From positions 1 through 34,822 of the forward strand of contig CAVWIH010000003.1 in the NCBI GenBank assembly GCA_963755025.1: a DNA stretch of 34,822 bases, written 5' to 3'. Under the pieces are notes generated by a model. The model saw only the letters and a program-made list of their open reading frames with translations, had not been told where the DNA came from and ran no database searches. A program made the position numbers and the translations under genes. The DNA is from an uncultured Actinomycetes bacterium (GTDB taxonomy: Bacteria; Actinomycetota; Thermoleophilia; UBA2241). Shown one piece after another: positions 13,533-30,372 of this stretch (the stretch's first letter is position 1; the number at the start of each line of letters is the position of its first letter).

Positions 13533-13740
13533 TGGCACTATTCTAACCGGAGAAACGGGACGGGCGCTTGCCGATCACGAGGCAGAGACGTTCGACGAGC
13601 CGCGGCGCACCATCGTCACGCGCGATCCCGAGGCATTGTCAACCACGGGTCGCGAGTGACCCCTCGGCGGCCACTCTGCGAATGATATAGTGGGCGCGCT
13701 CGTAGCGGGAGCGTGGGGCTCCCGGATCGGGGAGCTGCCA

Positions 13741-16621
13741 GTGGGGGATCACCAAAGCTCGCCATCGCGCCGCCGCGTCGCCGGCGTCCCGGCATTCGTC
13801 GCGGCCAAGATCGCCACGCCCAGCGGCGGGTTCGCGCTTATACGCCCCGCCGTGCTCGCCAAGCTTGCCGAGGGCGCCGAGCGGCGGCTCCTCATCGTGC
13901 GTGCGCCGGCCGGCTACGGCAAAACTGTGGTCGTCGCCGAAGCCTCGCGCCGGCTCGGCTGGCGCGCCGCGTGGTACCGGCTCGACGTCCTCGACCACGA
14001 CCCGGCCGTGCTCATCGCCTCGCTCGTGCAGGCCATCCGCGAGCCGGTCCCCGGATTCGGCGCCATCCTGCTCGAACGCTTCGCCGAAGCCCACGAAGTG
14101 CCCATGTCGCCGTCCGAAATGACGGCCCTGCTCGTCTCGGAGCTGCGCGACGAGGTCGACGGCGACCTGCACATCGTCATCGACGACTACCACCAGGCGA
14201 TCGCATCCGCCGAGCTCAACCGCACCCTCGACTACCTGCTTGCCAACGCGCCGCCGCACGTGCACCTCGTGCTGCTCACGCGCTACCAGCCGGCGATCGC
14301 CACGACCCGCCTGAAGCTCGACGATCAGATCGTCGAGCTGAGCTTCGAAGACCTGCGCCTCGACGCCGAGCAGGTCGTCGAACTCTTCGCCGCCCGCTCG
14401 CGGGCCGGGCTCGCCCGCGCCCAGGCCCGCCGCCTGGTCGCGCCTCACCGAGGGCTGGCCGGCGAGCCTGGTGCTCATCAGCAGGGCCCTCGACTGGACC
14501 AACCTCGGTTCCATCGAGCACGCCCTGGTCGACCCGCGCCTCACGAGCGACGTCTTCTCGTATCTGTCCGAAGAGGCGTTTCGCCGCGAAGACGCCGAGA
14601 CCGTCGCGTTCCTGCTGGCCACCTGCTGCCTCGAATCCATGACCGTCGAGCTCGCCGACAAAGTGGCCCGCGCCGACCACGCGCAGCGCTCGCTCGAGCG
14701 GCTGGTGGCGCACAACGTCTTCACCTTCGTCGACCGGGCGACCGGCACGTACCGTTACCATCAGCTCCTGCGCGACTACCTCCGGCAGTGGTATGTCAAC
14801 GAATACGGCGCGGGAGCGTTCCGCGACCTCCAGATCCACACCGCCGGTGCGGTCGAAGACGCGGGCGACCCCGAGACGGCGATAGAGCTCTACCTCGCCG
14901 CCAACGAGCCGGGCGAGGCGCTGGCCGTGGTGTCGCGCAGCGGCGAGCTCGTCACCGACAACTGCCGCTTCGACTCGCTGCGCTCGTGGCTCGACCGACT
15001 GGCTCCATACGCACGCACACGACGACCCGTGGGTCTTGTTCTTGCGGGGACAGCTGGCGTTGCGCGAGGGCGATTCGTCAAAGGCGCTCGACGCCCTCAC
15101 GCTGGCCGAATCCTCATTTCGGGCCCGCGGCGACTCGTGGGGCGTGTACCACGCTCTCAGCGCGATCGAGGCCATCTGGTTCTGGAAGGGCGACCTCGGG
15201 CAAGCGGCCGCTCACTGTGAAGCTGCCTTGCGGGCGGCCACCACAGCAGAGCAGCGTGTTCACACATTGGTCAGTTTGGGATCCGCACACAGCTACGTCT
15301 GCCACTGGGCGCAATCGGAACAGTTCTGGAACGAAGCACGCAGTGTCGCAGACCAAGCGTGCTTTCGCGAACTGGTTCGTATCGCAGCCTTGGAGGCGAA
15401 TACCGGGTACCTCCGCGGGGACTTCTTCATGTCAAGGGCACGCCTGCACGCGGTATTGCCGCAAGTTCAGACTGTTGGCCTCGCGAGCTTGGCGGTTTCG
15501 ATTCTGGGCACCATGGTCGAGATTGAGCGGGAGCTTGCCGACTACCGAGGCGCGCGCAGCACCGCTAGCGCGTTCACTATGGAGTGCGGACGGCTCGGTC
15601 TCGACCACGTAGAACACGTTTTCGACATCAGCCTATTTCGGTTGGCCCTGTCGGAGGATAGCGGCACCGGGACCCTATCTGATTTCGAACGGTTGGCGGC
15701 ATCGCCGCAAGTCCGTGAAGACGCTTGGTCCTTCTCGATGATGTTGACCGGCCTTGCGAACGCCATGCGCCACGCGGGGCGCCTCGACGATGCCTTTATC
15801 ACCTTTGGCCAGGCCGCCGGAGTCGGGCGTTCTATCGGCGCCCCCTCGCTTTGGCTGGCGGCCGAAGCCGGCCTCTGCCTCGTTTCGGGCCTGACGGGCG
15901 ATCCATCGGACGGCGCGACCCGCCTGATCGACGTGGAGCGACAGAGCGCCGCGCTCGAGCTTGCGTTCATCAGCAACCAGTGCCTCTTCTTCAGGGCGGC
16001 CCTGGCGCCACCTTGGCGGCGACGCTCGCTCGGCCCTCACCTCTCTCAGGGCATGCCTGCCCGCCCAGCTCGAGTTGGGTCACATCGACTTCCTGTGCCA
16101 GGAGTTCGCCCAGTGGCCGGCGCTGGCCCTGGTGGCGCTCAACGACCCCGAGCTTGCGGGGCACCGTCGCCCGCTCGTCCAGGCGCTTGCCCACAGCGCG
16201 AAATCTGTGCCCCTGTTCATCGACGTGTTCAGAGGCGGCGACGACTCGCTGCAGGGGCTGGTCGATCGAGGCGTGCGGACAGCACTCCCATCCAGACATC
16301 CCACAAGAGCTTGTGGCATGGACAAGGAAGCACGGCACGCCGCGGCAGCTACGCTCGGTGCGCAAGCTACTGCCGCGCGGCGAGCAGGACGTCGGGCGGG
16401 CTGGCGACCTTACCAGCCGCGAGCACGAGGTGCTCGGCCTCGTCGCAGCGGGTCTTCGCAACCACGAGATCGCGGCGCGGCTGTACCTCTCAGAAAAGAC
16501 GGTCAAAACGCACGTCAACCACATCTTCACCAAGCTGGGCGTCACCGACCGCGTCCAAGCCGTGCTGTACTATCGGCAGGTCGTCGCACCGAGCACCACC
16601 GAAGATACAACCACGGGCTGA
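13741..16621 (+). CDS. MalT-like STAND ATPase / TPR / LuxR-HTH transcriptional regulator; about 4 frameshifts (14445, 15010, 16010, 16275)
   Basis: [68 protein letters not shown] across ORF pieces; start uncertain (13690-13741). Confidence 0.85.
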
Positions 16622-16680
16622 TTTCACCCTGACTCGCGGCCGATAGCCTCCCTCTTGCCAATCGGACCGGGAGGGGGGTC

Positions 16681-17700
16681 ATGGAATCATCCGCATCGAT
16701 CGTCTTCGTAGAATCGCAGCGCATGAGTCCACGCAAGAAAACAGTGATCGAGATCCTGCGCGACAACCCGGGGTTCGTCTCGGGTCAAGCGATCAGCGAT
16801 TCGCTCGGCATCTCGCGCAACGCCGTGCACAAGCACGTGAACTCCCTGCGCGCCCGCGGCTTTCGCATTCTCGGCATCTCGCGACGCGGCTATCGGCTCG
16901 AAGAAGAGCCGCGCCGCCTCGTCATGCCGGTGGTCGCAAAGCTCACCCAGGGCTCGGCCCTCGGCAGGTCGCTCAGATACCACGACGAGATCGAGTCGAC
17001 CAACGCCGAGGCGCGGCGCCTGGCGAACGACGGCGCTCCCGAAGGCACGGTCGTGGTCGCCGAGAGCCAGCTCAAGGGCAGGGGCCGCCTTGGCCGCACC
17101 TGGACGTCGCCACCGGGAAAAGGCCTGCTCTTCTCAGTAATCCTGCGGCCCGAGCTGGCCATGACCGACGCTCACCTGCTGACTCTGACGACGGGCGATG
17201 CCGTCGCCGAGGCGATCGAGGCGCAGGTGAAGATCCCGGTGCACCTAAAGTGGCCCAACGACCTCATCGTCGACAACAAGAAGGCAGGCGGCATCCTGCT
17301 CGAGGTATCGGGCGAACAGGACAGGGTCGACTGGGTCGTCGCGGGCATCGGCATCAACGTCAACGTCGAGTTCTCCGAACTGCCCGTGCCGCTCAGAAAG
17401 ACCGCGACCTCGCTCAAGATGGCGACCGACAAGACGGTCGACCGCAGCGTCCTGCTCGCGAGGATCCTGCTCACGCTCGAACGCACCTACGTCGACTGCC
17501 TCACCAACGGCTTCGAGCGCACCCTGCGCGAGTTTCGCGAGCGCGATTACCTGCTGCACCGCAGCGTGAGCATGCAGACCCGCGAGGGTCCCGTGGTAGG
17601 CGAAGCGGCGGGCATCGACGACCGCGGCGCTCTCCTTGTGGAACTGCCCGATCGCCACATCCGGCGGTTCCATTCCGGCGACGTCACGTTGCATCAGTAG
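16681..17700 (+). CDS. birA: Bifunctional biotin protein ligase/repressor
   Basis: N-terminal wHTH (VSGQAISDSLGISRNAVHKHV), STN, QLKGRGRLGRTW, KWPND, KKAGGIL, GIGIN. Confidence 0.95.
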   Translation: MESSASIVFVESQRMSPRKKTVIEILRDNPGFVSGQAISDSLGISRNAVHKHVNSLRARGFRILGISRRGYRLEEEPRRLVMPVVAKLTQGSALGRSLRYHDEIESTNAEARRLANDGAPEGTVVVAESQLKGRGRLGRTWTSPPGKGLLFSVILRPELAMTDAHLLTLTTGDAVAEAIEAQVKIPVHLKWPNDLIVDNKKAGGILLEVSGEQDRVDWVVAGIGINVNVEFSELPVPLRKTATSLKMATDKTVDRSVLLARILLTLERTYVDCLTNGFERTLREFRERDYLLHRSVSMQTREGPVVGEAAGIDDRGALLVELPDRHIRRFHSGDVTLHQ

Positions 17701-17723
17701 GGAGCGAGCGCGAGACGGCGCCT

Positions 17724-17753
17724 TTGACAGGGGGCCGCCTCGCGCTTTACATT
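17724..17753 (+). promoter_or_regulatory. bioY promoter
   Basis: TTGACA-N18-TACATT. Confidence 0.6.
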
Positions 17754-17785
17754 GTCAACTCTTGCTGTCCTCCTGAGTTGACAAT
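17751..17785. promoter_or_regulatory. BirA operator upstream of bioY
   Basis: Perfect 11-bp arms ATTGTCAACTC-N13-GAGTTGACAAT, matching the TGTnAAC...GTTnACA BirA consensus and overlapping the -10 box. Confidence 0.85.
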
Positions 17786-18345
17786 TGCACACTCCCCTCT
17801 CCACGCGTGACCTCGCCCTGGCGGCTCTGTTCGCCGCACTGATCTCGCTCGGAGCCCTCGTCAGCCTGCCGCTCTTCGGCCCGGTGCCTCTCACCCTCCA
17901 GGTCTTCTTCGTGCTCGCTGCGGGGCTCGTGCTCGGCGCAAGGCTCGCCGTGCTGAGCGTGGTCGCCTATCTGATCGTCGGCCTCGTGGCGCCCGTCTAT
18001 GCACAGGGAGCATCAGGGGCCGGCGCATTAGTAGGCCCGGCCGGAGGTTACCTCTTCGGGTTCGTGGTCGCCGCCTACGTGGTCGGCAGACTTTGCGAGC
18101 GCTGGCAGGCGGAAGGGTTCTGGGCGCTGTTCGGCATCGCGTTCATCGGTCTCGTCCCGATCTACGCCATTGGCGCCTCGTGGCTGGCTTGGCAGCTCCA
18201 CACGACGAGCCTCGATGCCATCCTCTGGGGTGGGGTCGGACAATTCGTTCCGGGAGATGTCGCCAAGGCAGCGCTGGCCGCTCTCAGCGCTCGCGCGCTG
18301 TTCAGCCTGCCGCTGGGTCCTCGCGCGCCCTCGCGAGTCCGCTGA
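17785..18345 (+). CDS. bioY: Biotin transporter BioY
   Basis: PVPLTLQ, YLIVGLV.PVY, GPAGGYLFGF, FVPGDVAK; downstream of birA. Confidence 0.93.
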   Translation: MHTPLSTRDLALAALFAALISLGALVSLPLFGPVPLTLQVFFVLAAGLVLGARLAVLSVVAYLIVGLVAPVYAQGASGAGALVGPAGGYLFGFVVAAYVVGRLCERWQAEGFWALFGIAFIGLVPIYAIGASWLAWQLHTTSLDAILWGGVGQFVPGDVAKAALAALSARALFSLPLGPRAPSRVR

Positions 18346-19762
18346 GGTCAGCCAAGGCGTCACCGCGCAAGCGCAGGTTGAGGCGTCCACGTTCGTACTC
18401 GTCCATGAAGTCGGTCGCGCTGCCGTCCCGATAGGCGAGGTCTTTGTCTCGCAGGATGCCTGCCAGGACCTCGACCCATCGCGCATCGAGACCGACGCCG
18501 GCCATCGCCCGCAGCTCCTTGAGCGCTTCGAACGAGCTCAAGGCCCTACGGTACGGGCGGTCCGAGGTCATGGCGTGATAGGTATCGGCCACCGCCAGCA
18601 TCTTGCTGGCTTCGGGGATCGATTCACCTTTGAGACCCAGCGGATAGCCGGTGCCGTCCAGCCGCTCGTGGTGATAGCGCACGATGTCGGCCACATTCTT
18701 GTAGGTGGCCATGTGCGAGAGGACCTCGGCCCCCTTTTCCGGATGCTGGCGGATGTACGCCCACTCGTCGTCGTCGAGGGTCGAGTCTTTACGCAGAATG
18801 GCGTCCGGCGTGCCCACCTTGCCCAGATCGTGCAGCAGACCGGCGAGGTGGATCTCCTCGGCTTCGCTCTCGTCCATGCCCGCGGCCAGCGCCATGTCGC
18901 GGCAATACATCGCTACCGCCGCCGAATGGTCGGCGGTGTACTCGTCTTTGCTGTCGAGCAGCACGACCATGGCGACGGCAAGCCCCAGGTTCATCTCGAG
19001 GTACTTGTCCGTGAGTTCCTTCTGCTTCTCGACATGGGAGCGCTCACGGACCAGGAGCTTGAACATGTACTGGCTTGCGAAGAGCGGAATGAACAGCAGG
19101 ACAACGGCGGTAATCCCAGCGGTCGCGTACAGCGCCGCGACGGCCACGCCCATTCCCACAACAACTGCCGACGATTGCAGATGTGATCGCATGTCGTCGC
19201 GCCAGAACATTCTCAGGGAGATTCCGTATTTGACCCGAGCGCCAAGGCTGGTCAAGAGATTGTTGACGCCCTCGTAGACGAGCCCAGCGACCGCTCCCGC
19301 AAAGAGCAGCGCAAGCGACACGCTTCCGTCGCGAATAGCCATCTCATGGTGCAGGACTGCAAATACTGCCGCGGCTGCAAACGCCGAGACTGCTAGGTTC
19401 GAGCAGTTGTAGACCACGATCGCTCGCGACGACTCGCGCCAAGCTCCCCAGAGGCCGACCACGGCCGCAACCGACATTGCAGGAATCTGCCCCAGGAACA
19501 TGACTGCCAAGAGGATGGGTAGCGTGCCCGCCGTGACCGTTACGCGGTCGCGAACCTCCACCGCCATCTCATCAGCAATCACAGCAATGAGCGCGAGAAT
19601 CACGGTGTCGAGCACACGCCCGGAAAGTGCCCTATTCCCACTCGCCAGCTTGCCCGCATAAATCGCGCACGCGGCTGCCAAAATGCTCGCCGCGAAGGCA
19701 AGCTTCACAAAATCACGTTCGCGCTTATTCGCCTGCACCAACCACCGCCCCGCAGTTAACAC
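18302..19762 (-). CDS. HD-GYP phosphodiesterase with multi-TM N-terminal sensor domain
   Basis: About 6-7 TM helices, then DSKDEYTADHS, GLLHDLGK, HHERLDGTGYP, VADTYHAMTSDRPYR; start may be 19738; 3' end overlaps bioY convergently. Confidence 0.92.
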   Translation of the reverse strand: MLTAGRWLVQANKRERDFVKLAFAASILAAACAIYAGKLASGNRALSGRVLDTVILALIAVIADEMAVEVRDRVTVTAGTLPILLAVMFLGQIPAMSVAAVVGLWGAWRESSRAIVVYNCSNLAVSAFAAAAVFAVLHHEMAIRDGSVSLALLFAGAVAGLVYEGVNNLLTSLGARVKYGISLRMFWRDDMRSHLQSSAVVVGMGVAVAALYATAGITAVVLLFIPLFASQYMFKLLVRERSHVEKQKELTDKYLEMNLGLAVAMVVLLDSKDEYTADHSAAVAMYCRDMALAAGMDESEAEEIHLAGLLHDLGKVGTPDAILRKDSTLDDDEWAYIRQHPEKGAEVLSHMATYKNVADIVRYHHERLDGTGYPLGLKGESIPEASKMLAVADTYHAMTSDRPYRRALSSFEALKELRAMAGVGLDARWVEVLAGILRDKDLAYRDGSATDFMDEYERGRLNLRLRGDALADLSGLARAREDPAAG

Positions 19763-19822
19763 AAATCTATCGGCGCGTCGCTGGCTCGGCTTTAGCGCTT
19801 TCCGTCAGAAGTGTTGAGTAAT

Positions 19823-19900
19823 CTAGTGAATCTTGCTGTTGCCGCCAGAGGCGACGAGCACCAAGACAATCGACGCCAAAGCGTTTTCGACCTTTTTCAC
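19823..19900 (-). CDS. Small 25-aa peptide MKKVENALASIVLVLVASGGNSKIH (not in ORF track)
   Basis: GTG start with AGAAGGAAAG RBS 6 nt upstream; basic N-terminus, hydrophobic core, polar tail; co-oriented directly upstream of HD-GYP. Confidence 0.7.
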   Translation of the reverse strand: MKKVENALASIVLVLVASGGNSKIH

Positions 19901-19976
19901 TTGAATCTTTCCTTCTTCGAAGAAACTAGTGGAGCTTGGTCATCGTGACGATCATCAGGACCCCCTAAAGTTCTAG

Positions 19977-20005
19977 GTCAACCATGCCGATAACTTAAGG
20001 TTGAC
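19977..20005. promoter_or_regulatory. Second BirA-operator-like palindrome
   Basis: GTCAACC-N15-GGTTGAC; same core and spacing as GTCAACT-N15-AGTTGAC at 17754-17782. Confidence 0.55.
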
Positions 20006-20154
20006 GATTGCTGTGGTCTGGATGGTATACACAGGCTCGTAGCCTGCGCAAGCCCTCGTCCGTCAACCTGCCGGAATCGGAATGGCCTTGCTTTGCCTAG
20101 ACTGACAACGCTTTCGCGCCAAAAAGCCTCGTGTATGAGCGGGAGGAGCCCGGG

Positions 20155-21390
20155 GTGACGACCATCAGCGAGACCGCTCCAGCCCGTCCGCTCGCGCGCA
20201 ACACCAACTTTCTGCTCCTGGTGGGCGGACAGTTCATCTCGCAGATGGGCGACCGCCTCGCCATGGTCGCGTTTCCCTGGCTCGTCTACACGACGACCCA
20301 TTCGGCGCTCTCTACGGGTGTGGTCCTCGCGCTGTTCACGCTCCCGTACGTGCTGTTTGGGGCCGTGGCCGGTGGCGTGCTCGATCGCCTCGACAGGCGG
20401 GGCGTGATGGTGGCGGCCGACATTGTGCGCGGCGGGCTGGTGCTGGCCGTGCCGTTCGTCGCGCAGCACTCCACGGCGGGCGTGTTCGCGCTCGCGTTCC
20501 TCACGTCGTGCGCGACTGTCTTCTTCGACCCCGGCCTGATGACGCTCCTTCCGGAGATCGTGCCGGACGACGGTCTGCTGCGCGCCAACTCGGTGCTCGA
20601 CGCGAGCTCGCACGTCACCGAGATCGTGGGCTACGCAGCCGCGGGGTTCATCGTCTACTACCTCGCCACCCGCACGACGTTCACCGTGGACGCCGCCACG
20701 TTCGCCGTGTCTGCCGTGACGCTGCTGGCCATGACGCTCAAAGGCGGCGGGTCGACAGCCGACGGCGATGACGTCGACGGTGCCCTGCCGCGGCTCGGCT
20801 TCTGGCGAGAGACCCGCGAGGGGTTCTCGTACCTGCGTCGCCACGCCGGTCTGCGCGCCAACACCATCGTTGCCGTGGCGGCGGTGGCCGGCGTCGGCGC
20901 CTTCTACCCCTTGACGTTCCTTCTTGCGGCCGAGCGGTTCCACGGCGCGCGCACCTTCGGCTTCATGGAGGCCGCCATCGCGGTCGGCTACCTCGGCGGC
21001 TCTCTCGCGATGGCCGCCGTGGGCAAGCGCGTGCGCAAGGGCCTCGCCATGACGATCGGGCTGATGGTCATGGGCGGTTGTTACACCGTGCCGTGGGTCG
21101 TCCACTCCCTGCCGCTCGTTCTGGCCGACTTCGTGGTGCTCGGCGCCGCCAACGCGGCGGCGCTCATCTCGATCGACACCTACGTGCAGAGCGTGGTGCC
21201 CAAGGCGCTGCGGGGGCGCGTGTGGGGCACCAGGTTCACTCTCACGCAGGGCGTCTATGCCCTGGGCGTGCTCGTGGCTGGGGCGCTCGCGACCACGCTC
21301 GGCCTTGGGCCGCTCTTTGGGTTGTGCGGCCTGATCGTGTTCGTGCCGGCCCTCGTCGGCTTGTTCGTGCCTGTGGTGCGCGACATCTAA
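20155..21390 (+). CDS. MFS transporter (DHA3/macrolide-efflux-like)
   Basis: RNTNFLLLVGGQFISQMGD, GGVLDRLDRRGVM motif A, LRGRV; GGAGG RBS before GTG 20155. Confidence 0.88.
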   Translation: MTTISETAPARPLARNTNFLLLVGGQFISQMGDRLAMVAFPWLVYTTTHSALSTGVVLALFTLPYVLFGAVAGGVLDRLDRRGVMVAADIVRGGLVLAVPFVAQHSTAGVFALAFLTSCATVFFDPGLMTLLPEIVPDDGLLRANSVLDASSHVTEIVGYAAAGFIVYYLATRTTFTVDAATFAVSAVTLLAMTLKGGGSTADGDDVDGALPRLGFWRETREGFSYLRRHAGLRANTIVAVAAVAGVGAFYPLTFLLAAERFHGARTFGFMEAAIAVGYLGGSLAMAAVGKRVRKGLAMTIGLMVMGGCYTVPWVVHSLPLVLADFVVLGAANAAALISIDTYVQSVVPKALRGRVWGTRFTLTQGVYALGVLVAGALATTLGLGPLFGLCGLIVFVPALVGLFVPVVRDI

Positions 21391-21512
21391 GACGACGCGC
21401 TCGCCGCCGCGTCGCCCCGCGGCCGTCCCCGCGCCGCGCTGCACGGCCGCCGCCGGGTCGCACTCGGATCCCGGCCGCCCAGCTGTGAGGCCATCCTCAC
21501 CCTCGTGGTAGC

Positions 21513-22507
21513 CTAGATGATTGATTCCACGCCCACAGCCTCAGGCGCAGTAGTCGACCAGGGCGCGGCTCGGCCGTCCCAGCCGGTGGTTGAGGCTGAT
21601 GCAGACCGCCAGGCAGCAGAAGCGTTGCAGGATACGCTCGCGTAGCCCCGCCATGGTGCGTGCCCCGTGGCGCTCCAGGGTGAGCAGATCCTTGGCCGTC
21701 CAGAAGATCGACTCGATGCGCTGGCGGATGGGCGCCAGGTACGGGCCGGCTGCGGTCTCGTCCTTGCGCGCAGGTCGCACCACAGCGACGCCGCGCTCGG
21801 CGGCCCCGCGAGCGAACTCGCGCCCGGCGTAGCCCTTGTCGCACAGAAGGACCTCACCGCCGCGCGCCGCGCGTCGCAGCAGCTCGAGGGCCACCTCGCG
21901 TTCGCCGCGGGCGGGATCGGCGAGCGTAAAGGCCCGCGGGGTACCATCGGGAGCCACCAGCAGGTGGAGGCGAAAGCCCCAGAACCAGCGCGAGTGGGCG
22001 GCACAGTAGCCGTAGCCGGCGGCCTCGCCAAGCGCTGAGCGCTTGGCCGTCTCGCGGCTGGCGGCGCAGGGCAGCGGGGTCGAGTCGCACAGCAGAAGGT
22101 CGTCCGTAAAGCCCGGGCTTTTGCTGGCGAAGACGCCCGTGAGCCACTCGATCGTGTCGGCCAGACGGCGGCGGCGTTTGTGATAGCCGGCCTGGCGAGG
22201 CACGTCGGGGAACAGATGGACGAGGCGCTTGCGGGCCGTCGCCAGGAAGCGCCGGTCGGATGGGATCCCCATGATCGCCTGGGCCACGCAGAGGGTGACG
22301 ACCTCGGCGTCGCTCACGCGGCGGCGGGCGTTACGCCGTGCCTCTGGCAGAAGATCGTCGGCTGTGCAATAAACCACGGTGCAGAGAGTGTCGAGGTCGG
22401 CGTCCATCGTGGCCTCCGGGCAGACGGTGACTTAGGGCACCGTCGGCTTCGGCCTCTCTGCTTCTCTTTCCTTGCCTGAGGCGAATCTCGTGGAATCAAT
22501 CATCTAG
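21513..22507 (-). mobile_element. Complete IS982-family insertion sequence
   Basis: Terminal inverted repeats CTAGATGATTGATTCCACG / CGTGGAATCAATCATCTAG, extended inward by GCCTCAGGC/GCCTGAGGC; CTAG at both ends; one transposase. Confidence 0.88.
21541..22407 (-). CDS. IS982-family DDE transposase
   Basis: SDAEVVTL, CDSTP, GYGYCAAHSRWFWGFRLHL, CDKGY, RQRIES. Confidence 0.9.
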   Translation of the reverse strand: MDADLDTLCTVVYCTADDLLPEARRNARRRVSDAEVVTLCVAQAIMGIPSDRRFLATARKRLVHLFPDVPRQAGYHKRRRRLADTIEWLTGVFASKSPGFTDDLLLCDSTPLPCAASRETAKRSALGEAAGYGYCAAHSRWFWGFRLHLLVAPDGTPRAFTLADPARGEREVALELLRRAARGGEVLLCDKGYAGREFARGAAERGVAVVRPARKDETAAGPYLAPIRQRIESIFWTAKDLLTLERHGARTMAGLRERILQRFCCLAVCISLNHRLGRPSRALVDYCA

Positions 22508-22563: not shown

Positions 22564-23877
22564 GTGACCACGCCAGCCGACACCGGCCAGACGCCGGCGC
22601 TGCGCCAGACCGACTGGACTCAGCTCGCGCTGGTCTGTTTTGCCTCGTTCGTGGTGTGGTCGGGCTTCGGCGCCATCCTGCCCTACCTGCCGGTCTTCCT
22701 GCACGAGCAGGCGCACGCACCGGTGTGGATGATCGGCGTCATCGCCTCCATGTACTACGCCGGCACGTTCCTGTGCTCGTCGCCGCTCGGCCGCCTGAGC
22801 GACCGCGTAGGTCGCAAGCCCGTCGTGGTCAGCGGCGTGTTCCTCTACGCGCTCGCCACCCTGCTGTTCGTGACCACCACGAACGCGTGGTGGTTCCTGC
22901 TGTTCCGCCTGTGCGAGGGAGTCGGCGCGGCCTCAGTGGGGCCGGCGGGCAGCGCGTTCATCGCCGACATCAGCAACGACGAGACCCGCGGGCGCGCCTA
23001 CGGCCTGTTCACGAGCGCGCAGTTCGGCGGCCTCGTCGCCGGGCCGCCGCTCGCCATCCTGCTGAACACGCTGGGCGGCGGCGGCAAGCACGGTTTCTAC
23101 GCGATCTTCCTGGCGGGCAGCGCCATGACGCTGGCCATGGGCATCATGCTCGCCGTGTTCCTGAAGGAGCCCGCGCACGTCGCGGCGCGCCGCAAGGAGC
23201 GCGTCGTGCGACCGAGCTACCGCTCGCTGGCCACGCCCTCGGTGGTCGCCTTTCTCGTGGTCGCCGCCACGAGCCACTTCGCCATGGGCGGCTGGGAGGT
23301 GCTCTGGAGCCTGTGGTTGCGCCACCTCGGCGCCTCGATGGCCTACGTGAGCCTCACCTGGATGGCCTTCTCGGTGCCCATGATGTTCTCGTTCGTCGGC
23401 GGCATGCTGGCTGAGAAGGGCAACCGCTTTCGGCTGATGTTCGCGGGCTACACCTTCTCGGCGTGCTCGTGGATCGTCTACGGCTTCACGCGCAACCTCA
23501 CAGTCTTTCTGCTCTTCAACGTGCTCGAGGGCATCGCCGTGGCTATCTCGATGCCGGCCAAGCAGGCCTTCCTTGTGCAGTGCAGCCCGCGGCGCTGGCT
23601 GGGCACGGTGCAGGGCATGGAACAGACCTCGATGCAGCTCGCCGCCCTGGTGGGCACGCTCACCGCCCCCGTGCTGTTCACGTGGATCAGCGGCTACGCG
23701 ATCGGCGTGGGCGGCTTTCTGGCCCTCGGCGGCCTCGCCGCCGCGGCGCCGGTCCTGGGGCGCAAGTGGACGCAGATCGCGGCGCAGGGCGAGGCGCTCA
23801 GCCTCGCAGAGGCGGAGCGCCTCGCCTCGGCGCCGGCCGGCGGCGCCTTCGACGACGAGCGTTCGCCGGCCGGATAG
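22564..23877 (+). CDS. MFS transporter (DHA1/TetA-like)
   Basis: GRLSDRVGRKP motif A, RGRAYG, GLVAGP; about 12 TM helices. Confidence 0.9.
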   Translation: MTTPADTGQTPALRQTDWTQLALVCFASFVVWSGFGAILPYLPVFLHEQAHAPVWMIGVIASMYYAGTFLCSSPLGRLSDRVGRKPVVVSGVFLYALATLLFVTTTNAWWFLLFRLCEGVGAASVGPAGSAFIADISNDETRGRAYGLFTSAQFGGLVAGPPLAILLNTLGGGGKHGFYAIFLAGSAMTLAMGIMLAVFLKEPAHVAARRKERVVRPSYRSLATPSVVAFLVVAATSHFAMGGWEVLWSLWLRHLGASMAYVSLTWMAFSVPMMFSFVGGMLAEKGNRFRLMFAGYTFSACSWIVYGFTRNLTVFLLFNVLEGIAVAISMPAKQAFLVQCSPRRWLGTVQGMEQTSMQLAALVGTLTAPVLFTWISGYAIGVGGFLALGGLAAAAPVLGRKWTQIAAQGEALSLAEAERLASAPAGGAFDDERSPAG

Positions 23878-23973
23878 GCGCCCACCGAAGGTCCGCGCTC
23901 AAGTCGATTGAAGGATGGCCGATGTCGAGGTAACCTAGGTCGAACCCGGTCATCAAGCAGCTCGGCGGGTGTG

Positions 23974-24567
23974 ATGTTCAAGAGACTCCGTCCAGAAAGC
24001 GGCGCTCGCCGCACGATCATCGACTACGGCCTGACGGCCGTCATCGCGATCGCCCTCGCCATCGTCGTGCAGTCGTTCGTGGTCAAGCCCTACCTCATTC
24101 CGTCGACCTCGATGGCCAACACGCTGGTGCCCGGGCAGCGGGTGCTGGTCGACCGCATGGTCTATCGGTACCGCTCGGTCCACCGCGGCGACATCATCGT
24201 CTTCCGTCGCCCGCGGCCGCCCTACGACGTGCTCATCAAGCGCGTGGTCGGGCTGCCCGGCGACCTGCTGTCCGTGCACGGCGGTCACCTGTACATCAAC
24301 GGCGTGCGCGCCAACGATTCCTTCGTCGACAAGGTCAACGGCGTCACCGAACCCACCGACCCCGCCGACCCCTACGCCAGCACCTACCCCGATGCGCCGT
24401 GGTCGCTGGCGCAGCCCTTCCGCGTGCCCGCCGGCAACTACTTCGTGATGGGCGACAACCGCACCGACTCGGCCGACAGCCGCTACTGGGGGACCGTGCC
24501 GCGCCACGCCATCATCGGGCGCGCCTTCTTCACCTACTGGCCGCTGGGTCGTCTGGGCGACCTGTAG
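23974..24567 (+). CDS. lepB: Signal peptidase I
   Basis: IPSTSM (Ser), RGDIIVF, IKRVVGLPGD (Lys), MGDNRTDSADSRYWG; start approximate. Confidence 0.93.
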   Translation: MFKRLRPESGARRTIIDYGLTAVIAIALAIVVQSFVVKPYLIPSTSMANTLVPGQRVLVDRMVYRYRSVHRGDIIVFRRPRPPYDVLIKRVVGLPGDLLSVHGGHLYINGVRANDSFVDKVNGVTEPTDPADPYASTYPDAPWSLAQPFRVPAGNYFVMGDNRTDSADSRYWGTVPRHAIIGRAFFTYWPLGRLGDL

Positions 24568-24750: not shown

Positions 24751-24854
24751 TTGTTCCATCTGCCGACCGCCGCGCCTCTGTTCGTGCTGCTTGCGGTCGG
24801 AATGCTCGTGTCGCCGAAGCGTCGAAGCCTCGTGGACCTGACTCTAAGGCCCCC

Positions 24855-26462
24855 TCAGGCCGCTCGCCCGGGTGGCCGCAGCTCGGTCGTCGTGGCGACG
24901 GGCACCGCCGCCGCTTCGGCCTGCTCGGGCCGCGACTCGTCGTACCACGGCACCATGGCGTCGACGGTCTCCATCTTGCGAGCGAAGAACGGCCGCGAGC
25001 GCTTGGAGAACAGCCAGAAGGCGAGCATGCCCACGATGCCGGCGACCAGGAAGACCGCTCCCAGGATGAAGGGTGGCCCGACGCCGAACCACGAGGTGCC
25101 CGACGCCGAGTTGGCCGGGTACCAGAGGCTGTCGAACGACGCGGCGAGCACCCAGGTCAGGATGGCCGCGCCGGCCAGCGGAAAGACGAGCAGCATCAGC
25201 ACGCTCTTCCAGCTCTCGAACAGGTGATGGCGATAGAACAGCGGCACGGCGTAGCCGTTGATGCCGTAGTAGAAGGCGATGGTGATGCCCAGGGCGGCGA
25301 TCGAGTCGGCCAGCACGTTCTGGCTGAGCAGGGTCAGCCCCACGTACCACACGATCGAGGCGATGCCGTAGATGATCGTGCCCCAGACCGGCGTCTGGAA
25401 GCGCGGGTTGACCTTCGCCCAGACCGACGGGATGGCGCGATGCGAAGCCATCGACAGGGTGGTGCGGGCGCCCGGCAGGATGGTGGTGAGCGTCGAGGCC
25501 GTGGCCGAGGTCAGCACGACCGCGATCAGCAGCTTGTCGAGGCCCGAGCCCAGCACGGCGTTGCCCAGGGGACTCAGCACGTCGGCTGAGTTGTTGCCCA
25601 GGAAGGCGGGGCCGTGGAAGGCCTGCGCCGCGGTGGTCGCCAGCACGTAGATGAACACCAGGGCGACCGTGCTGAGGATGGCGGCGATGCCCGGCACGAT
25701 CGATTTGTTCGAGGTCTCCTCGTTGACCGAGACCGCGGTGTCCCAGCCCCAGTAGATGAAGAGGGCGAGCAGCACGCCGCCGGCGAGCGCCCCCAGGTTC
25801 ATGTTGGGCACGAACCAGGAGACCGCCGGGTGGATGGAGCCGGCCGGATGTGAGGTGTAGACCTTGGTGAGCGCGACCACCGAGAAGATGACCAGCATGA
25901 GGTACTCGAAGCCCAGCAGGAACCACTGCAGCCGGGCCGACACCTCGATGCCGATCGCCGTGATCGCGCACATGAGCACGAGGAAGGCGACGCCGATGAC
26001 CGTCACCCAGAACAGCGAGTTGGCCAGGCTGTTGGCGCCGATCAGCAAGAAGAAGTAGGTGCCGGTGATCTGCGCCAGGCTGGCCATGACGATGACGTCG
26101 GCGGCGACCATGACCCAGCCGGTCACCCAGCCGGTGCGCGGACCGATGGCTCTGGTCACCCAGCTGAAGGTCGTGCCGCAGTCGGGATCGGCCTTGTTCA
26201 GGTAGTAGTAGGAGCTGGCGATGAGGATCATCGGGACGAACGAGATCAGCATGATCGCCGGAGACTTGAGGCCGACCCCGGCCACCACGACCACCAGGCC
26301 CAGGGTCACGGCCAGGCTGTAGGCCGGGGCCGTCGAGGCGATCCCGATGACGACGCTCGACAGCATGCCTACGGCGTTGGTCTTGAGGCCCTTGGCGTCG
26401 TCGGTCGCCTTCAGCGTCTCGTCGCGTTTGGGTTCGGGAAGTGGTACCACTGCACCTTCCAC
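24855..26462 (-). CDS. APC family amino acid/polyamine permease
   Basis: GIASTAPAYS, PDCGTTFSW, YWGWDTAVSVNEE, VNPRFQTP; about 12 TM helices. Confidence 0.9.
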   Translation of the reverse strand: MEGAVVPLPEPKRDETLKATDDAKGLKTNAVGMLSSVVIGIASTAPAYSLAVTLGLVVVVAGVGLKSPAIMLISFVPMILIASSYYYLNKADPDCGTTFSWVTRAIGPRTGWVTGWVMVAADVIVMASLAQITGTYFFLLIGANSLANSLFWVTVIGVAFLVLMCAITAIGIEVSARLQWFLLGFEYLMLVIFSVVALTKVYTSHPAGSIHPAVSWFVPNMNLGALAGGVLLALFIYWGWDTAVSVNEETSNKSIVPGIAAILSTVALVFIYVLATTAAQAFHGPAFLGNNSADVLSPLGNAVLGSGLDKLLIAVVLTSATASTLTTILPGARTTLSMASHRAIPSVWAKVNPRFQTPVWGTIIYGIASIVWYVGLTLLSQNVLADSIAALGITIAFYYGINGYAVPLFYRHHLFESWKSVLMLLVFPLAGAAILTWVLAASFDSLWYPANSASGTSWFGVGPPFILGAVFLVAGIVGMLAFWLFSKRSRPFFARKMETVDAMVPWYDESRPEQAEAAAVPVATTTELRPPGRAA

Positions 26463-26642
26463 GTGCCCTCCTTCCGAAAGCCAGGCGGAGGGCGGAAGGC
26501 CATCCGCCGCGGTACAAGGGCCCCCCGGTCATCAACAGGCCGAGGCGGCTAACGCAGGGATTCCCCTTTGGCCGTAGTGGTAAAACGGGTTGGCTTGCCG
26601 GCCGATGCGAGCCGGGCGCGAACGACGGGGCGAGCCGAGGGC

Positions 26643-27702
26643 TCAGGCCTGCGGGTAGCGCCGCACCTCGCCGTAGAGGGTGTCGCGCTGGACCGGCGTG
26701 AAGCCGGCGGCGGCGATCAGGCGCACGAGCTCTTCGACCGTGACCGCGTGGCTCACGCCCGCGGCGCGCACCACGTTCTCCTCGATCATGGTCGAGCCCA
26801 TGTCGTTGGCCCCGAACGACAGCGCGACCTGGCCCATGCGCAGTCCCTGGGTGACCCACGACGCCTGCACGTTGGGCACGTTGTCGAGGTAGACCCGGCT
26901 GACCGCCAGCAGACGCAGGTAGTCGCTGCCCGTGGCGCCGGGCCGGCCGTCGTCGAGCGCCGTGTTGCCCGCCGCGAAGGTCCAGGGGATGAATGCCGTA
27001 AAACCGCCGGTCTCGTCTTGCAGCTCGCGGATGCGGCGCAGGTGCTCGATGCGTTCGGCGGGCGTGTCGACTGAGCCGAACATCATGGTCGCCGTGCTCT
27101 TCATGCCGAGCGCGTGCGCCTCGCGCATGACCTGCAGCCAGGTCGCCGTGGGGATCTTGTGGGGGCTGATGGCGCTGCGCACGCGGTCGACCAGCACCTC
27201 GGCGCCGCCGCCCGGCAGCGAGTCGAGGCCCGCCGCGCGCAGCCGGCGCAGCGTCTCGGTGACCGTCGAGGCCGCTGCGGCTCGCGATGTGGGCGACTTC
27301 GGGCGGCGAGAGCGAGTGGATGTGGATCGGGTAGCGCGCCTTGATGTCGGCGAAGACCTGCTCGAACCAGCAGATGTCGAGGTCGGGCGACAGGCCGCCC
27401 TGCATCATGATGGCGGTGCCGCCGAGCGCGAGGGTCTCCTCGATCTTGCGGAAGATCTCGTCGCGAGTGAGCAGGTAGCCCGCCCCGCTGCCCGGCTCCT
27501 TGTAGAAGGCGCAGAAGCGGCAGCCCGAGATGCAGTAGTCGGTGTAGTTGATGTTGCGGTCGACCACGAAGGTGACGTCGCTAGCCGGGTGGAGGCGGCG
27601 CCGGACTTCGTCGGCCGCCGCCCCGAGCTCGAGCAGGTCGCCGCCCTCGAGCAGCGCCAGCGCGGCGGCGTCGGTGAGCCGTTGCGCCGCCACGTCAGGC
27701 AC
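26643..27702 (-). CDS. mqnC: Cyclic dehypoxanthine futalosine synthase (radical SAM); frameshift near 27268
   Basis: DRNINYTDYCISGCRFCAF, MQGG, GGGAE, TATMMFG, QASWVTQG, FGANDMGS, QRDTLY. Confidence 0.9.
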
Positions 27703-28352
27703 GCTCGTCGGAGGGCGCGGTCGCAGGCGACGCCGCGCGCGACGCGGCGGTGGCGGGCGCGCCTGCGGCGGGCGACGCGGCGGCGGCGGCGAGGCGACGC
27801 GGCGGCGGCGGGCGACGCGGCGGCGGGCGCGTCCGCCGCGAGTCGCGTCGAGGGAGCGCCCGGCTCGTCGAGGCGCAGCTCGAAGTGCACGACGGCGCCC
27901 TCCGGCACGCTGGGCTCGCCAAAAGCCGGCAGGCCGTCGACCTCGAGCTCGCCGGGCAGCAGCACAAAGCCGAGGCGCTGGTGAAAGGCGAGGGAGTCAT
28001 GGTTGACGACCGAGGTCACGGCCCGCACGCGGCTGCGCCCGGCGGCCCGGGCCGCGTCGCTGAAGCGTCCGTAGAGGTCGCGAGCCAGGCCCACGCGCCG
28101 CCAGGCCGGGTCGACCCCGACGAAGTGCACGTAGGCCTCGTCGTCGTGCGTCGGGCACAGAAAGCCGACCAGAAAGGCGACGGGCCGCTGTTCGTACTCG
28201 GCCACGAACGACGTGTCGCGGAAGTGCTCGAAGAAGACGCGCGGCAGCATGGCGCGCAGGTCGCGCCCGCCCCACCACACCGGCATGGCGTCGGTCACGG
28301 ACTGCCAGTCGCGCGGCTGTGCGTGCCTGACGGTCAGGCCGCAGCAGGTCAT
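27695..28352 (-). CDS. GNAT acetyltransferase inside the mqn operon; Ala-rich tail with probable frameshift
   Basis: WWGGRDLRAMLPRVFFEHF, AYVHFVGVDPAWRRVGLARDLY, NHDSLAFHQRLGF; ATGA overlap with the mqnA stop. Confidence 0.8.
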
Positions 28353-29242
28353 AGCGCCTGGCCTTCGCGTGCTGCCATCGCCGACTCGCGCGCCGCCGAA
28401 GTCGCGGCCGACTCGGCCGCCGGCGCGGCGCCGCCCAGGTCGGGCAGGCGGTCGAGCTCGCCGATGGCCTGCGCCCGGCGGTAGAACTCGGCGAGACCGC
28501 GGCGGTAGTCGTCGGGAAAGCCGTACTTGAGCTGGTCGAAGTAGTGATCGAGGTAGGCGGCGCTGAAGTCGCAGAGCTGCGCCGCCGCCGCGGCGGTCTC
28601 GAGGTGGTGGGCGGCGCAGCGGTCGCGCGAGGCGACCAGCGCCGCTTCGATGGCGCGCGCCTCGTCGCCGCGTTCGTCGAGAAAGTCGCGGCGCACCGCG
28701 CAGACCGCGTAGACCATGGGCAGGCCGGTGACGAGGCGCCACTCCTCGCCCAGGTCGTAGCTGTAGGGGTAGACGCCGGCGCGCAGAATGTGGAGCGCCT
28801 CGTCGCCGATCAGCAGCAGGCCGCCGAAGTTGGCGAGCGCCTGGGCCAGCGGACCCTGACGGGCGCCGTACGAAGGCGCCATGCCCCACTCGTCGCAGAG
28901 CACCTTGAGCAGGCACACCGAGGTGGCGCTCTTCTCGGTCAGGGCGATGCTTTCGACCTGCGCGCGCGGCAGCTGGGTGAAGAGCTGGATCGAATCGACG
29001 GCGCCGAACGAGCTGATCGAGATGCCGGGCAGCAGCGCCAGCTTGTCGGCGTGACGGGCGAACTCGATCGACGAGGGCAGGGCAACGTCGATCTCGCCGG
29101 CGACGAGCAGCCGGTTGAGCTCGGACGGCGGCCCTTCGACGATCTCTGCCTCGTAGCCCAGCCGCGAGAGCTCCTCGACGAAGTGGTAGTAGAGCGGGAA
29201 GCAGTTGACGAACTCGATGCGTCCGACGCGGGCGACTCTCAC
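28349..29242 (-). CDS. mqnA: Chorismate dehydratase MqnA
   Basis: VGRIEFVNCFP, PSELN, GAVDSI, SATS, LLIGDEAL, DLGEEW..TGLPMVYAV; GTGA overlap with the mqnE stop. Confidence 0.9.
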   Translation of the reverse strand: MRVARVGRIEFVNCFPLYYHFVEELSRLGYEAEIVEGPPSELNRLLVAGEIDVALPSSIEFARHADKLALLPGISISSFGAVDSIQLFTQLPRAQVESIALTEKSATSVCLLKVLCDEWGMAPSYGARQGPLAQALANFGGLLLIGDEALHILRAGVYPYSYDLGEEWRLVTGLPMVYAVCAVRRDFLDERGDEARAIEAALVASRDRCAAHHLETAAAAAQLCDFSAAYLDHYFDQLKYGFPDDYRRGLAEFYRRAQAIGELDRLPDLGGAAPAAESAATSAARESAMAAREGQAL

Positions 29243-30372
29243 CTGGGCGCTCCGTCGTCGTAGCGGCGCACCACGTTGTAGAGCGTGTCGCGCTCGACCG
29301 GCACGCGCCCGGCGCCGCGGATGACGCGCACGAGCTCGTCGCGGGTGAGCTCCTGGCCGGTCTCCACGCCGGCAGCGTGGCTGATCTTCTCTTCGACCAC
29401 GGTGCCGTCGAGGTCGTTGACGCCGAACGACAGCGAGACCTGGGCGAGCTTGAGGCCGACGTTGATCCAGAAGGCCTTGACGTGGCGGAAGTTGTCGAGC
29501 ACGAGGCGCCCGGCGGCGAGCACCCTGAGGTCGTCGAAGCCGGTCGGTCCGGGCAGCTCGGAGAGGCCCGTGTTGGCCGGCTGAAACGAGAGCGGGATGA
29601 AGGCGTTGAAGCCGCCCGACTCGTCTTGCAGCTCGCGCAGGCGCAGCAGGTGGTCGGCGAGCTCGTCGGGCGTCTCGACGTGGCCGTAGAGCATGGTGGC
29701 GTTGGAGCGCAGCCCCACGCCGTGGGCGATGCGCATGACCTCGAGCCACTCGTCGCCCGAGATCTTGCGCTCGCAGATCAGGTCGCGCACGCGGCCGCTG
29801 AAGACCTCGGCGCCGCCGCCGGGCAGCGAGCCCAGGCCGGCCTCTTTGAGCTGGCGCAGCGTCTCCTGCACGCCGAGGCCGCTGACGCGCCCCAGGTGGG
29901 CGATCTCGCTGGCCGTGAAGGCCTGGATGTGGACGTCGGGAGCGAGCTCCTTGAGGCCGCGCATCATCTCGAGGTAGTAGTCGAAGGGCAGGTCGGGGTG
30001 CTCGCCGCCCACGATGTGGATCTCGGTGATGCCGCCGGTCAGGGTCTCGCGCGCCTTGTCGAGCACTTGGTCGACCGACAGCGTGAAGGCGTCGGCGTCG
30101 CCGTCGTCGTGGCTGAAGGCGCAGAACAGGCAGCGGTTGCGGCACACGTTGGTGTGGTTGATGTGGCGGTTGGCGATGAAGTAGACGTCGTCGCCGACGG
30201 CGCGGCGGCGCACGTAGTCGGCCAGCGCGCCGATGGCGATCAGGTCGGAGCTGGTGAGCACGTCGCGGGCATCGGCGGCCGACAGGCGCCGCCCGTCGAG
30301 CACCTTGTCCCACACGTGCGAGAGGCCGGCGCGCCGGCTCAGCAGGTCGATCTGTCGTTCGTCTAAGCTCAT
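29239..30372 (-). CDS. mqnE: Aminofutalosine synthase MqnE (radical SAM)
   Basis: NRHINHTNVCRNRCLFCAF, HIVGG, SNATMLYGH, HVKAFW, DLDGTVVEEKISHAAG. Confidence 0.92.
   Translation of the reverse strand: MSLDERQIDLLSRRAGLSHVWDKVLDGRRLSAADARDVLTSSDLIAIGALADYVRRRAVGDDVYFIANRHINHTNVCRNRCLFCAFSHDDGDADAFTLSVDQVLDKARETLTGGITEIHIVGGEHPDLPFDYYLEMMRGLKELAPDVHIQAFTASEIAHLGRVSGLGVQETLRQLKEAGLGSLPGGGAEVFSGRVRDLICERKISGDEWLEVMRIAHGVGLRSNATMLYGHVETPDELADHLLRLRELQDESGGFNAFIPLSFQPANTGLSELPGPTGFDDLRVLAAGRLVLDNFRHVKAFWINVGLKLAQVSLSFGVNDLDGTVVEEKISHAAGVETGQELTRDELVRVIRGAGRVPVERDTLYNVVRRYDDGAPR

Follow-up and report, generated by a model that had tools for sequence, protein, structure and literature searches.

We identified two very short genes, sORF2 (25 codons) and uORF1 (9 codons), upstream of the gene for a membrane-bound HD-GYP phosphodiesterase in an uncultured actinobacterium of the class Thermoleophilia (UBA2241; assembly GCA_963755025.1). 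The locus lies on a 34,822-nt stretch of contig CAVWIH010000003.1, which is called the window below. The sensor part of the enzyme is a MASE9 domain, and the peptides encoded by the two mini-genes are the best candidates so far for the input of this sensor. We tentatively favor a reading in which they act in trans, as an input module, on the MASE9 domain of the neighboring enzyme, which would make them a peptide input of a phosphodiesterase that degrades cyclic di-GMP (c-di-GMP).

sORF2 is a conserved 25-codon gene

sORF2 (19823..19900, minus strand) starts with GTG and encodes MKKVENALASIVLVLVASGGNSKIH. It is preceded by a Shine-Dalgarno site, GAAGGAAAG (19907..19915, minus), and close relatives carry purine-rich sites at the same place. 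The peptide starts with a basic stretch, continues into a hydrophobic core and, past an invariant GG, finishes with Lys-Ile-His; the 17 residues between E5 and K23 are uncharged and would make up a single hydrophobic helix. The sORF2 stop codon and the first possible start of the enzyme gene (GTG 19762) are 60 nt apart; the distance is 81-84 nt for two further candidate starts (TTG 19741 and GTG 19738), both of which follow a GGGGCGG site. These coordinates and motifs agree with an earlier sequence-only reading of the window, which had described a GTG-start open reading frame (ORF) with a ribosome-binding site 60-85 nt before a co-oriented membrane HD-GYP gene.

A search of 61 related genomes yielded 30 orthologous enzyme loci, the window's own included, whose enzymes are 57-100% identical to that of the window. 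The best matches outside this family suggest that the family as a whole probably belongs to Thermoleophilia. sORF2 was intact in 25 of these 30 syntenic loci, bearing out the suggestion of the same reading that a conserved small ORF be sought upstream of the homologs. At the other loci the copy was degraded (L008), split by a frameshift (L015), cut by a contig end (L025) or missing (L022, and L009, a poor assembly). The intact copies also bore the mark of codon-level constraint. In the 22 gap-free 25-codon copies, variation at codon positions 1/2/3, taken as the share of sequences unlike the commonest base, was 0.23/0.12/0.40, and the ratio of nonsynonymous to synonymous differences (pN/pS) was 0.39, with a mean pS of 0.64 and a mean pN of 0.25. 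Gly19 and Gly20 were written with all four Gly codons and Ser10 with five Ser codons. At the peptide level G19, G20 and H25 were invariant, with K23, S10 and E5 nearly so, giving the consensus M-[KR]-K-[VIL]-E-x-x-L-A-S-[IL]-[VL]-x-A-L-V-x-x-G-G-[SN]-x-K-[ILVM]-H. The tail pattern was present in 67 of 89 genomes of the family, nearly always as one copy each, and the strict tail motif had a single real peptide match in the 3.37-Mb genome of the window. Together, these patterns of substitution indicate that sORF2 is a real, conserved and probably translated gene and not a chance ORF. No Pfam or NCBIfam model matched the mini-gene peptides above its cut-off; within the scope of these two collections, the mini-genes belong to no described family.

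A 9-codon sister gene shares the tail of sORF2

A second mini-gene, absent from the earlier picture of the locus, lies upstream of the ribosome site of sORF2, at a distance of about 25 nt. uORF1 (19926..19955, minus) has nine codons, encodes MIVTMTKLH and thus ends in Lys-Leu-His, the same Lys-hydrophobic-His form as the end of sORF2. Its Shine-Dalgarno site, GGGGG (19961..19965, minus), is placed 5 nt before the ATG and is conserved in the alignment as GGGGG or GGAGG. An intact micro-ORF ending in [KR]-[ILVM]-H (-R in L022) was found at this position in 27 of the 30 loci; in the remaining three it was out of frame (L024) or cut by contig ends (L018, L025). The middle residue of the end tripeptide was always I, L, V or M, and the alternation between Lys and Arg made use of unrelated codons (AAG, AAA, AGA, CGG, CGC). 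In several lineages uORF1 consisted of two or three in-frame tandem x-x-K-hydrophobic-H units, such as a triple ...GGKMH in L014, a double PGKVH in L026 and, in L023, two copies that each contain PVKIH twice; the expansions proceed in steps of 18-24 nt and remain in frame. The end tripeptides of uORF1 and sORF2 were identical in 10 of 23 loci, including all four Lys-Met-His cases and one Arg-Leu-His pair with different codons in the two genes. These observations indicate that uORF1, like sORF2, is conserved at the peptide level.

The region is dense with conserved promoter elements on both strands, and it could be asked if the two ORFs are genes at all or if their conservation reflects overlapping promoter or operator DNA. 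The third-position bias and the free use of four Gly codons at G19/G20 and of five Ser codons at S10 speak against this, as do the in-frame expansions of uORF1 and the exchange of Lys and Arg via unrelated codons. The core promoter elements, moreover, fall outside both ORFs. We therefore regard this explanation as extremely improbable.

The adjacent gene encodes an ordinary MASE9-HD-GYP enzyme

The longest ORF of the enzyme gene (486 aa) covers 18302..19762 on the minus strand. Its product matched Pfam HD_5 at residues 266-426 (E 8.7e-42), as well as Pfam HD, and Pfam MASE9 (PF20972) at residues 52-231 with 29.2 bits (gathering cut-off 24.3); a six-frame family search recovered the same gene. 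The HD and HHERLDGTGYP motifs are intact and were constant across 19 orthologs, among which H311, D312, H364, H365, E366, D369, G370, G372, Y373 and P374 were invariant. An AlphaFold2 model of the enzyme had a mean pLDDT (the predicted local distance difference test) of 68.7, with 80-90 in the membrane part, and placed helices at residues 2-40, 46-65, 113-140, 150-179, 183-215 and 217-270. Two further short helices (80-89 and 92-109) correspond to the short intramembrane hairpin that Galperin and Chou (bioRxiv 10.1101/2021.11.05.467447) describe for MASE9. Pfam matches, motifs and modeled helices thus agree with the earlier view of membrane helices fused to an intact HD-GYP domain, and these features mark the enzyme as a typical MASE9-HD-GYP family member and a putative c-di-GMP phosphodiesterase. 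It shares its family and the intramembrane hairpin with T. maritima TM1467 and S. venezuelae HdgA; unlike the described MASE9-HD-GYP proteins, it has a proposed conserved peptide partner.

The model also has a bearing on where a ligand might bind. The outer loops of the MASE9 domain were modeled as only about 5, 9 and 1 residues long and are poorly conserved. The invariant residues W105, W108, R109, E110, N119 and F134 map to the membrane core or its vicinity. In the paper defining the domain, ligands are proposed to bind inside the membrane (10.1101/2021.11.05.467447); the MASE9 passages of that paper give the ligand as not known and make no mention of mini-genes.

Related mini-genes precede paralogous and distant MASE9-HD-GYP genes

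Within the family, the whole block around the enzyme gene is inherited together, so adjacency there cannot tell the partners apart. Outside the syntenic block, similar mini-genes shared a basic N-terminus, an 11-14-residue hydrophobic core, a small-residue hinge (ASG[AG]) and a 4-6-residue tail rich in K/R/W/H. In the genome of the window, a paralogous enzyme gene (C17:109129-110439, minus) is preceded by two of them (within C17:110498-110858, locus L159), of 31 and 30 codons, with the endings ...AVASGAAKKWS and MRSLLYNRVVIALALVVALAVASGAWWKWD (AKKWS and WWKWD at the very end). The same two mini-gene types were present at the orthologs of this paralog in three genomes of the same genus, and in another genus the endings were ...ASGAGRKWH, ...SSGAGFKWA and ...ASGAGRKWS. 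In a second family of the class, two lineages carried ...AASGGRWTW or RWRW, and ...ACAGSWKF, a third family carried ...ATGAGWRTT, and a separate actinobacterial metagenome-assembled genome (L064) carried ...SAGAGYHWG.

Using a relaxed pattern, we found a mini-gene within 600 nt upstream, on the strand of the enzyme gene, in 11 of 45 non-syntenic MASE9 loci, against a background of 0.019 per 600 nt in the genome of the window; this pattern was defined after the data had been seen, and the related genomes are not independent. Nearly all of its 215 background matches were out-of-frame GC-rich junk, while a strict version of the pattern missed the ...SGAAKKWS type. A search of genome contigs, driven by the HD-GYP catalytic motifs, returned mostly unrelated HD-GYP proteins, and one of the seven full-length matches inspected had a mini-gene (L064). 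Mini-genes were mostly missing from MASE9 proteins of other architectures. One pair of paralogue-type mini-genes (...ASGAAKKWC and ...ASGAWWKWD) was an orphan, with one member at C26:49551-49643 (L172:4052-4144, minus) and the other about 100 nt upstream; no HD-GYP gene was found beside this pair, and the nearest gene that could be recognized codes for a convergent MMPL transporter. The occurrence of related mini-genes ahead of both paralogous and distant MASE9-HD-GYP genes takes the tie between peptide and enzyme beyond simple synteny, and the pairing of a small peptide gene with a membrane HD-GYP gene that had been proposed from the window is reinforced from outside it.

Predicted WhiG-type promoters lie on both sides of the mini-genes

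Two sigma-28/WhiG-type promoters were predicted at the locus. P1 (19767..19794, minus), with the form TAAAG-N15-GCCGATAG, is situated between the sORF2 stop and the start of the HD-GYP gene, and P2 (19966..19993, plus), with the form TAAAG-N15-GCCGATAA, points at a divergent gene for an MFS_3 transporter of the major facilitator superfamily (MFS). The earlier reading had no promoter separating sORF2 from the HD-GYP gene and no co-regulated divergent MFS exporters, and both extend its picture. The exact pattern TAAAG-N15-GCCGATA occurs at 19768-19794 (minus) and 19966-19992 (plus); the whole 3.37-Mb genome has five matches, compared with none for a reversed control. A third match (C17:110832-110858) lies upstream of both paralogue mini-genes. 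The remaining two (C5:34216-34242 and C12:65088-65114, both minus) stand elsewhere in the genome, with a small protein of about 65 residues, very basic in composition, downstream of one and a secreted protein with a signal peptide downstream of the other. With a looser pattern, P1 was recovered in 21 of 31 and P2 in 16 of 31 syntenic loci, and 6 of 6 paralogue loci had a same-strand WhiG-type site ahead of their mini-genes; the looser pattern gave no such site in 6 distant loci.

The genome encodes a FliA/WhiG sigma factor (C7:4210-4887; TIGR02479, 271.5 bits, cut-off 189.6). Since neither FlhA nor flagellin was found in the 84%-complete assembly, this sigma factor is probably WhiG-like. The promoters share the consensus of the sigma-WhiG/RsiG/c-di-GMP switch of Actinomycetota, given as -35 TAAA and -10 GCCGATAA (PMC8325347), and their spacing agrees with a spacer of about 15-16 nt. 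A second account predicts that, among WhiG targets in this phylum, c-di-GMP enzymes are the most widespread (bioRxiv 10.64898/2026.01.14.699351). The passages of these two papers that deal with the switch make no reference to mini-genes or to MASE9-HD-GYP in this lineage.

P1 also bears on where the enzyme begins. Its predicted transcription start is at about 19760, so the true enzyme start is probably TTG 19741 or GTG 19738 rather than GTG 19762. For the mini-genes themselves, we predict a sigma-70-like promoter on the minus strand with a -35 element TTGCGC (20051..20046), an 18-nt spacer and a -10 element TACCAT (20027..20022). Judged by eye, a TAnnnT hexamer is kept at the predicted -10 in all 25 alignment rows that cover it.

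Expression data came from assembled, unstranded contigs of metatranscriptome libraries of relatives that are about 93% identical, in which DNA carry-over is possible. Contigs from two studies (514 and 518 nt) span 19497 or 19489 to 20006, and their shared end point, 20006, falls a few bases past the inferred transcription start. A third run contributed two 151-nt contigs covering 19760-19910 and 19885-20035. The RNA-library contigs differ from the window at three positions within sORF2 (19844, 19853 and 19879), every one of them synonymous; the contigs of the third run have no differences in sORF2, compared with nine in the 20 nt past its stop.

The peptides most likely act in trans

Both ORFs are in the 5' region of a transcript that is able to read into the HD-GYP gene, as the RNA-library contig spanning 19489-20006 illustrates, and their common C-terminal tripeptide followed by a stop codon recalls arrest peptides that act at the termination stage. 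It is therefore conceivable that the ORFs are a cis-acting leader, in which translation or stalling at Lys-hydrophobic-His-stop controls expression of the HD-GYP gene and the peptides themselves are functionless. Attenuators of the TnaC or Erm leader type would be expected to have a coupling RNA structure or terminator, and none was found at the leader of the window. The consensus fold of 15 leaders, taken from uORF1 to the enzyme start, reached only -2.51 kcal/mol with 4 pairs and 0 compensatory changes; there was no terminator in the leader, and that of the window folded no better than shuffled sequence (z -0.47). A scan of 17000-21500 against Rfam gave no matches at E up to 1.

Two candidate RNA elements were considered and rejected. 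A long-range helix between TATCGGCA in the leader and TGCCGATA before the HD-GYP start was contradicted by uncompensated changes in L016, L017 and L021; the two segments are the -10 elements of the two oppositely oriented WhiG-type promoters and not an RNA element. A hairpin at the 5' end (GTCAACC/GGTTGAC) had a 3' arm that is not conserved.

Other features also speak against a leader. The conserved promoter of the HD-GYP gene itself, P1, is predicted downstream of sORF2, which bears on whether the enzyme needs read-through from the uORFs at all. A leader role needs neither the hydrophobic helix nor E5, S10 and GG, yet all of these are conserved; the tails of the two ORFs co-vary though the ribosome is unchanged, and the orphan mini-gene pair has no recognizable downstream partner. 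A cis-acting leader role is unlikely. Given the lack of a conserved RNA fold and of a terminator, and P1 as the predicted promoter of the enzyme gene itself, the peptides most likely act in trans, and the MASE9 domain is their steady neighbor.

Membrane-resident modulator or released peptide

In the reading that we tentatively favor, the sORF2 peptide would insert in the membrane in an N-in, C-out orientation, as the positive-inside rule suggests, and would stay there. Its helix and short cationic tail would dock on MASE9 within the bilayer and so set phosphodiesterase activity, much as MgrB acts on PhoQ, and uORF1 would supply the same Lys-hydrophobic-His tail in free form. The tiny outer loops of the receptor, its invariant membrane-core residues and the published proposal of binding inside the membrane are the reasons for favoring membrane-resident docking. 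We predicted the complex of MASE9 residues 9-250 with sORF2, using alignments for each chain; scores of 0.16 and 0.24 were obtained, compared with a mark of 0.32, for a partner of fewer than 30 residues that is outside the calibration of this mark.

The sequence-only reading had placed more emphasis on a diffusible pheromone. Here, sORF2 would be a minimal signal peptide joined to a C-terminal penta- or hexapeptide; signal peptidase I would cut it after ASG/GG, the released x-S-K-hydrophobic-H peptide would be sensed from outside by MASE9 and uORF1 peptides would leave the cell via the neighboring MFS exporters. Every variant has the tripartite look of a signal peptide, in which a basic N-terminus and an 11-14-residue hydrophobic core lead to small residues at -3/-1, and ends in a tail of 4-6 residues. 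This tail is its best-conserved part and recurs alone in uORF1, at times as two or three tandem units, and the co-variation of the uORF1 and sORF2 tails, identical in 10 of the 23 loci, also fits this reading. Candidate means of export and cleavage are at hand: a tandem of MFS genes under a WhiG-type promoter was found in 7 of 8 extended loci, with a paralog of S26 signal peptidase I next to it in 4 of 8.

Known pheromone systems offer a partial parallel. Phr, SHP and PrgQ are short pheromone precursors of Gram-positive bacteria. Such precursors are 20-40 residues long, with a basic-hydrophobic N-terminal part and a C-terminal active 5-8-mer, and are encoded beside their receptor, a layout like that of sORF2. 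One of nine peptides, from an ortholog, weakly resembled the Phr N-terminal model (Phr_nterm TIGR04429, 13.4 bits, cut-off 25), and the window's own peptide gave nothing. The receptors of Phr peptides are cytoplasmic RRNPP/Rap proteins, whereas the neighbors here are BirA, BioY, MASE9-HD-GYP and MFS, with MASE9 as a putative membrane receptor. Pherotype diversification, which is usual in pheromone systems, was not seen either: the tail is nearly invariant across the family while the receptor drops to 57% identity. Agr-type systems need AgrB and double-glycine leader peptides use ABC transporters with a C39 peptidase, and the 84%-complete genome of the window had no match to AgrB (PF04647) or to the C39 peptidase (PF03412); the absence of an AgrB-like gene, noted earlier for the immediate surroundings, thus extends to the whole of this assembly. 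The paralogous mini-genes, moreover, have SGA in place of the GG of double-glycine leaders.

Several features of the locus also argue against release. The outer loops of the receptor are tiny and poorly conserved, and near-invariance of S10 and E5 in the "signal" part would be unusual for a signal peptide that is discarded. uORF1 has no export signal, the C17 paralogue locus has no MFS gene, and the S26 gene is adjacent in close genera only and is one of four copies. We thus consider a diffusible pheromone, the main rival reading, less likely, and the other option offered by the sequence-only reading, a membrane-resident modulator of the transmembrane domain, fits at least as well.

Some observations weigh against membrane-resident docking in turn. 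The sORF2 core is strictly hydrophobic over 11-14 residues only and then runs into ASG[AG], a signal-peptidase-like site that fits cleavage too. uORF1 has no hydrophobic segment, yet it carries the same tail as sORF2. Two loci do without sORF2: L009 has two uORF1-like copies (MTRMQTRLH twice), and L022, in a genome rated 100% complete, has MRQSWKLR and MRKSWKLR. Since both loci retain duplicated uORF1-like copies, the tail rather than the helix may be the active part. Finally, the evidence of expression comes from unstranded RNA-library contigs of relatives that possibly contain DNA.

Gene neighborhood and a possible link to MFS exporters

All 30 loci have a common gene order, in which BirA-BioY converge on the HD-GYP gene, followed by the mini-genes and then a divergent MFS gene. 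BirA was found in 29, MFS in 26 and BioY in 25 of them, with the misses falling at contig ends or in short flanks. In the window, the MFS_3/MFS_1 transporter gene occupies 20131..21390 (plus). A second MFS gene, which adjoins the first in seven of the eight genomes with extended flanks, is here set apart at 22564-23877, beyond a DDE transposase gene (21541-22407, minus) that sits between the two. Downstream of both lies the S26 signal peptidase I paralogue (23908-24567, plus). Near the MFS start is an imperfect palindrome, TTGCC-N6-GACAA (20093..20108), whose family-wide form, by eye, is TGTTGYC-N6-GRCAACA; it is operator-like and may be a candidate site for some regulator.

As the BirA-BioY, HD-GYP, mini-gene and MFS block is inherited together, adjacency alone would also allow the peptides to serve the MFS exporters, or to act alone as membrane-active, bacteriocin-like, MFS-exported products, with the HD-GYP gene merely syntenic. 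The peptides are small, cationic and hydrophobic, and an MFS gene also follows distant HD-GYP homologs, on the same strand, at six loci. Outside the syntenic block, however, the mini-genes track the MASE9-HD-GYP gene and not MFS: the C17 locus and the two second-family lineages have mini-genes and HD-GYP with no MFS within reach, and at four loci of another family HD-GYP and MFS occur with no mini-gene. The peptide is, in addition, uniformly hydrophobic and not amphipathic. A primary link to the exporters is in our judgment improbable.

Further out in the window, three long overlapping ORFs in different frames (13690-16646, plus) end in a LuxR/GerE helix-turn-helix (15725-16621) and may represent a single large regulator gene broken up by frameshifts or assembly errors. 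On the other side, beyond the locus, a block with radical-SAM, GNAT and VitK2_biosynth (futalosine-type menaquinone) genes (24844-30313, minus) is syntenic in relatives.

Discussion

Small membrane proteins that modulate membrane sensors are exemplified by MgrB and SafA, both of which act on PhoQ. The proposal for sORF2 is alike in that a tiny hydrophobic protein would adjust, from within the bilayer, the cytoplasmic output of a polytopic sensor, and the locus has the trait of this class, a single-helix small protein beside a sensor with conserved adjacency. It differs in that sORF2 has no family match, that the output is an HD-GYP phosphodiesterase and not a histidine kinase, and that binding is here a proposal. 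At 25 aa, sORF2 is also shorter, and it is accompanied by a tail-only sister peptide of 9 aa.

Small membrane proteins wired into c-di-GMP signaling are common to the mini-genes described here and to a set in C. difficile, in which small membrane-associated proteins under c-di-GMP riboswitches act on sporulation (PMC13724677). The C. difficile proteins are outputs of c-di-GMP, while the peptides here are candidate inputs of an enzyme that degrades it. Our search of the full-text literature found no description of an HD-GYP or MASE9 protein with a peptide or small ORF as its partner; the target tables of the WhiG preprint may include the enzyme family. What is new here is accordingly a candidate peptide partner or ligand for a sensor class of unknown input, wired to WhiG-type promoters.

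A broader and more speculative reading, to which we would give limited credence, is that tethered (sORF2) and free, MFS-exported (uORF1) peptides constitute a new ligand class, an autocrine or quorum-type input that acts directly on MASE9 and closes a WhiG/RsiG/c-di-GMP feedback loop in early-branching Actinomycetota. Such a class would span the Lys-hydrophobic-His peptides and the related peptides with Trp/Lys tails at paralogous loci. The narrower input module that we favor would likewise feed the WhiG/c-di-GMP feedback loop.

A c-di-GMP-degrading enzyme and two exporters are thus linked to WhiG-type promoters in a lineage for which the WhiG-RsiG switch is regarded as ancestral, and this link opens a positive feedback loop to examination. 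The locus also has a practical side. The lower length limits of common gene callers are usually set above 9 and 25 codons, and genes of these two lengths may expose a gap in annotation. MASE9 is a widespread sensor domain of c-di-GMP enzymes, and the conserved peptide pair gives concrete, testable candidates for its input.

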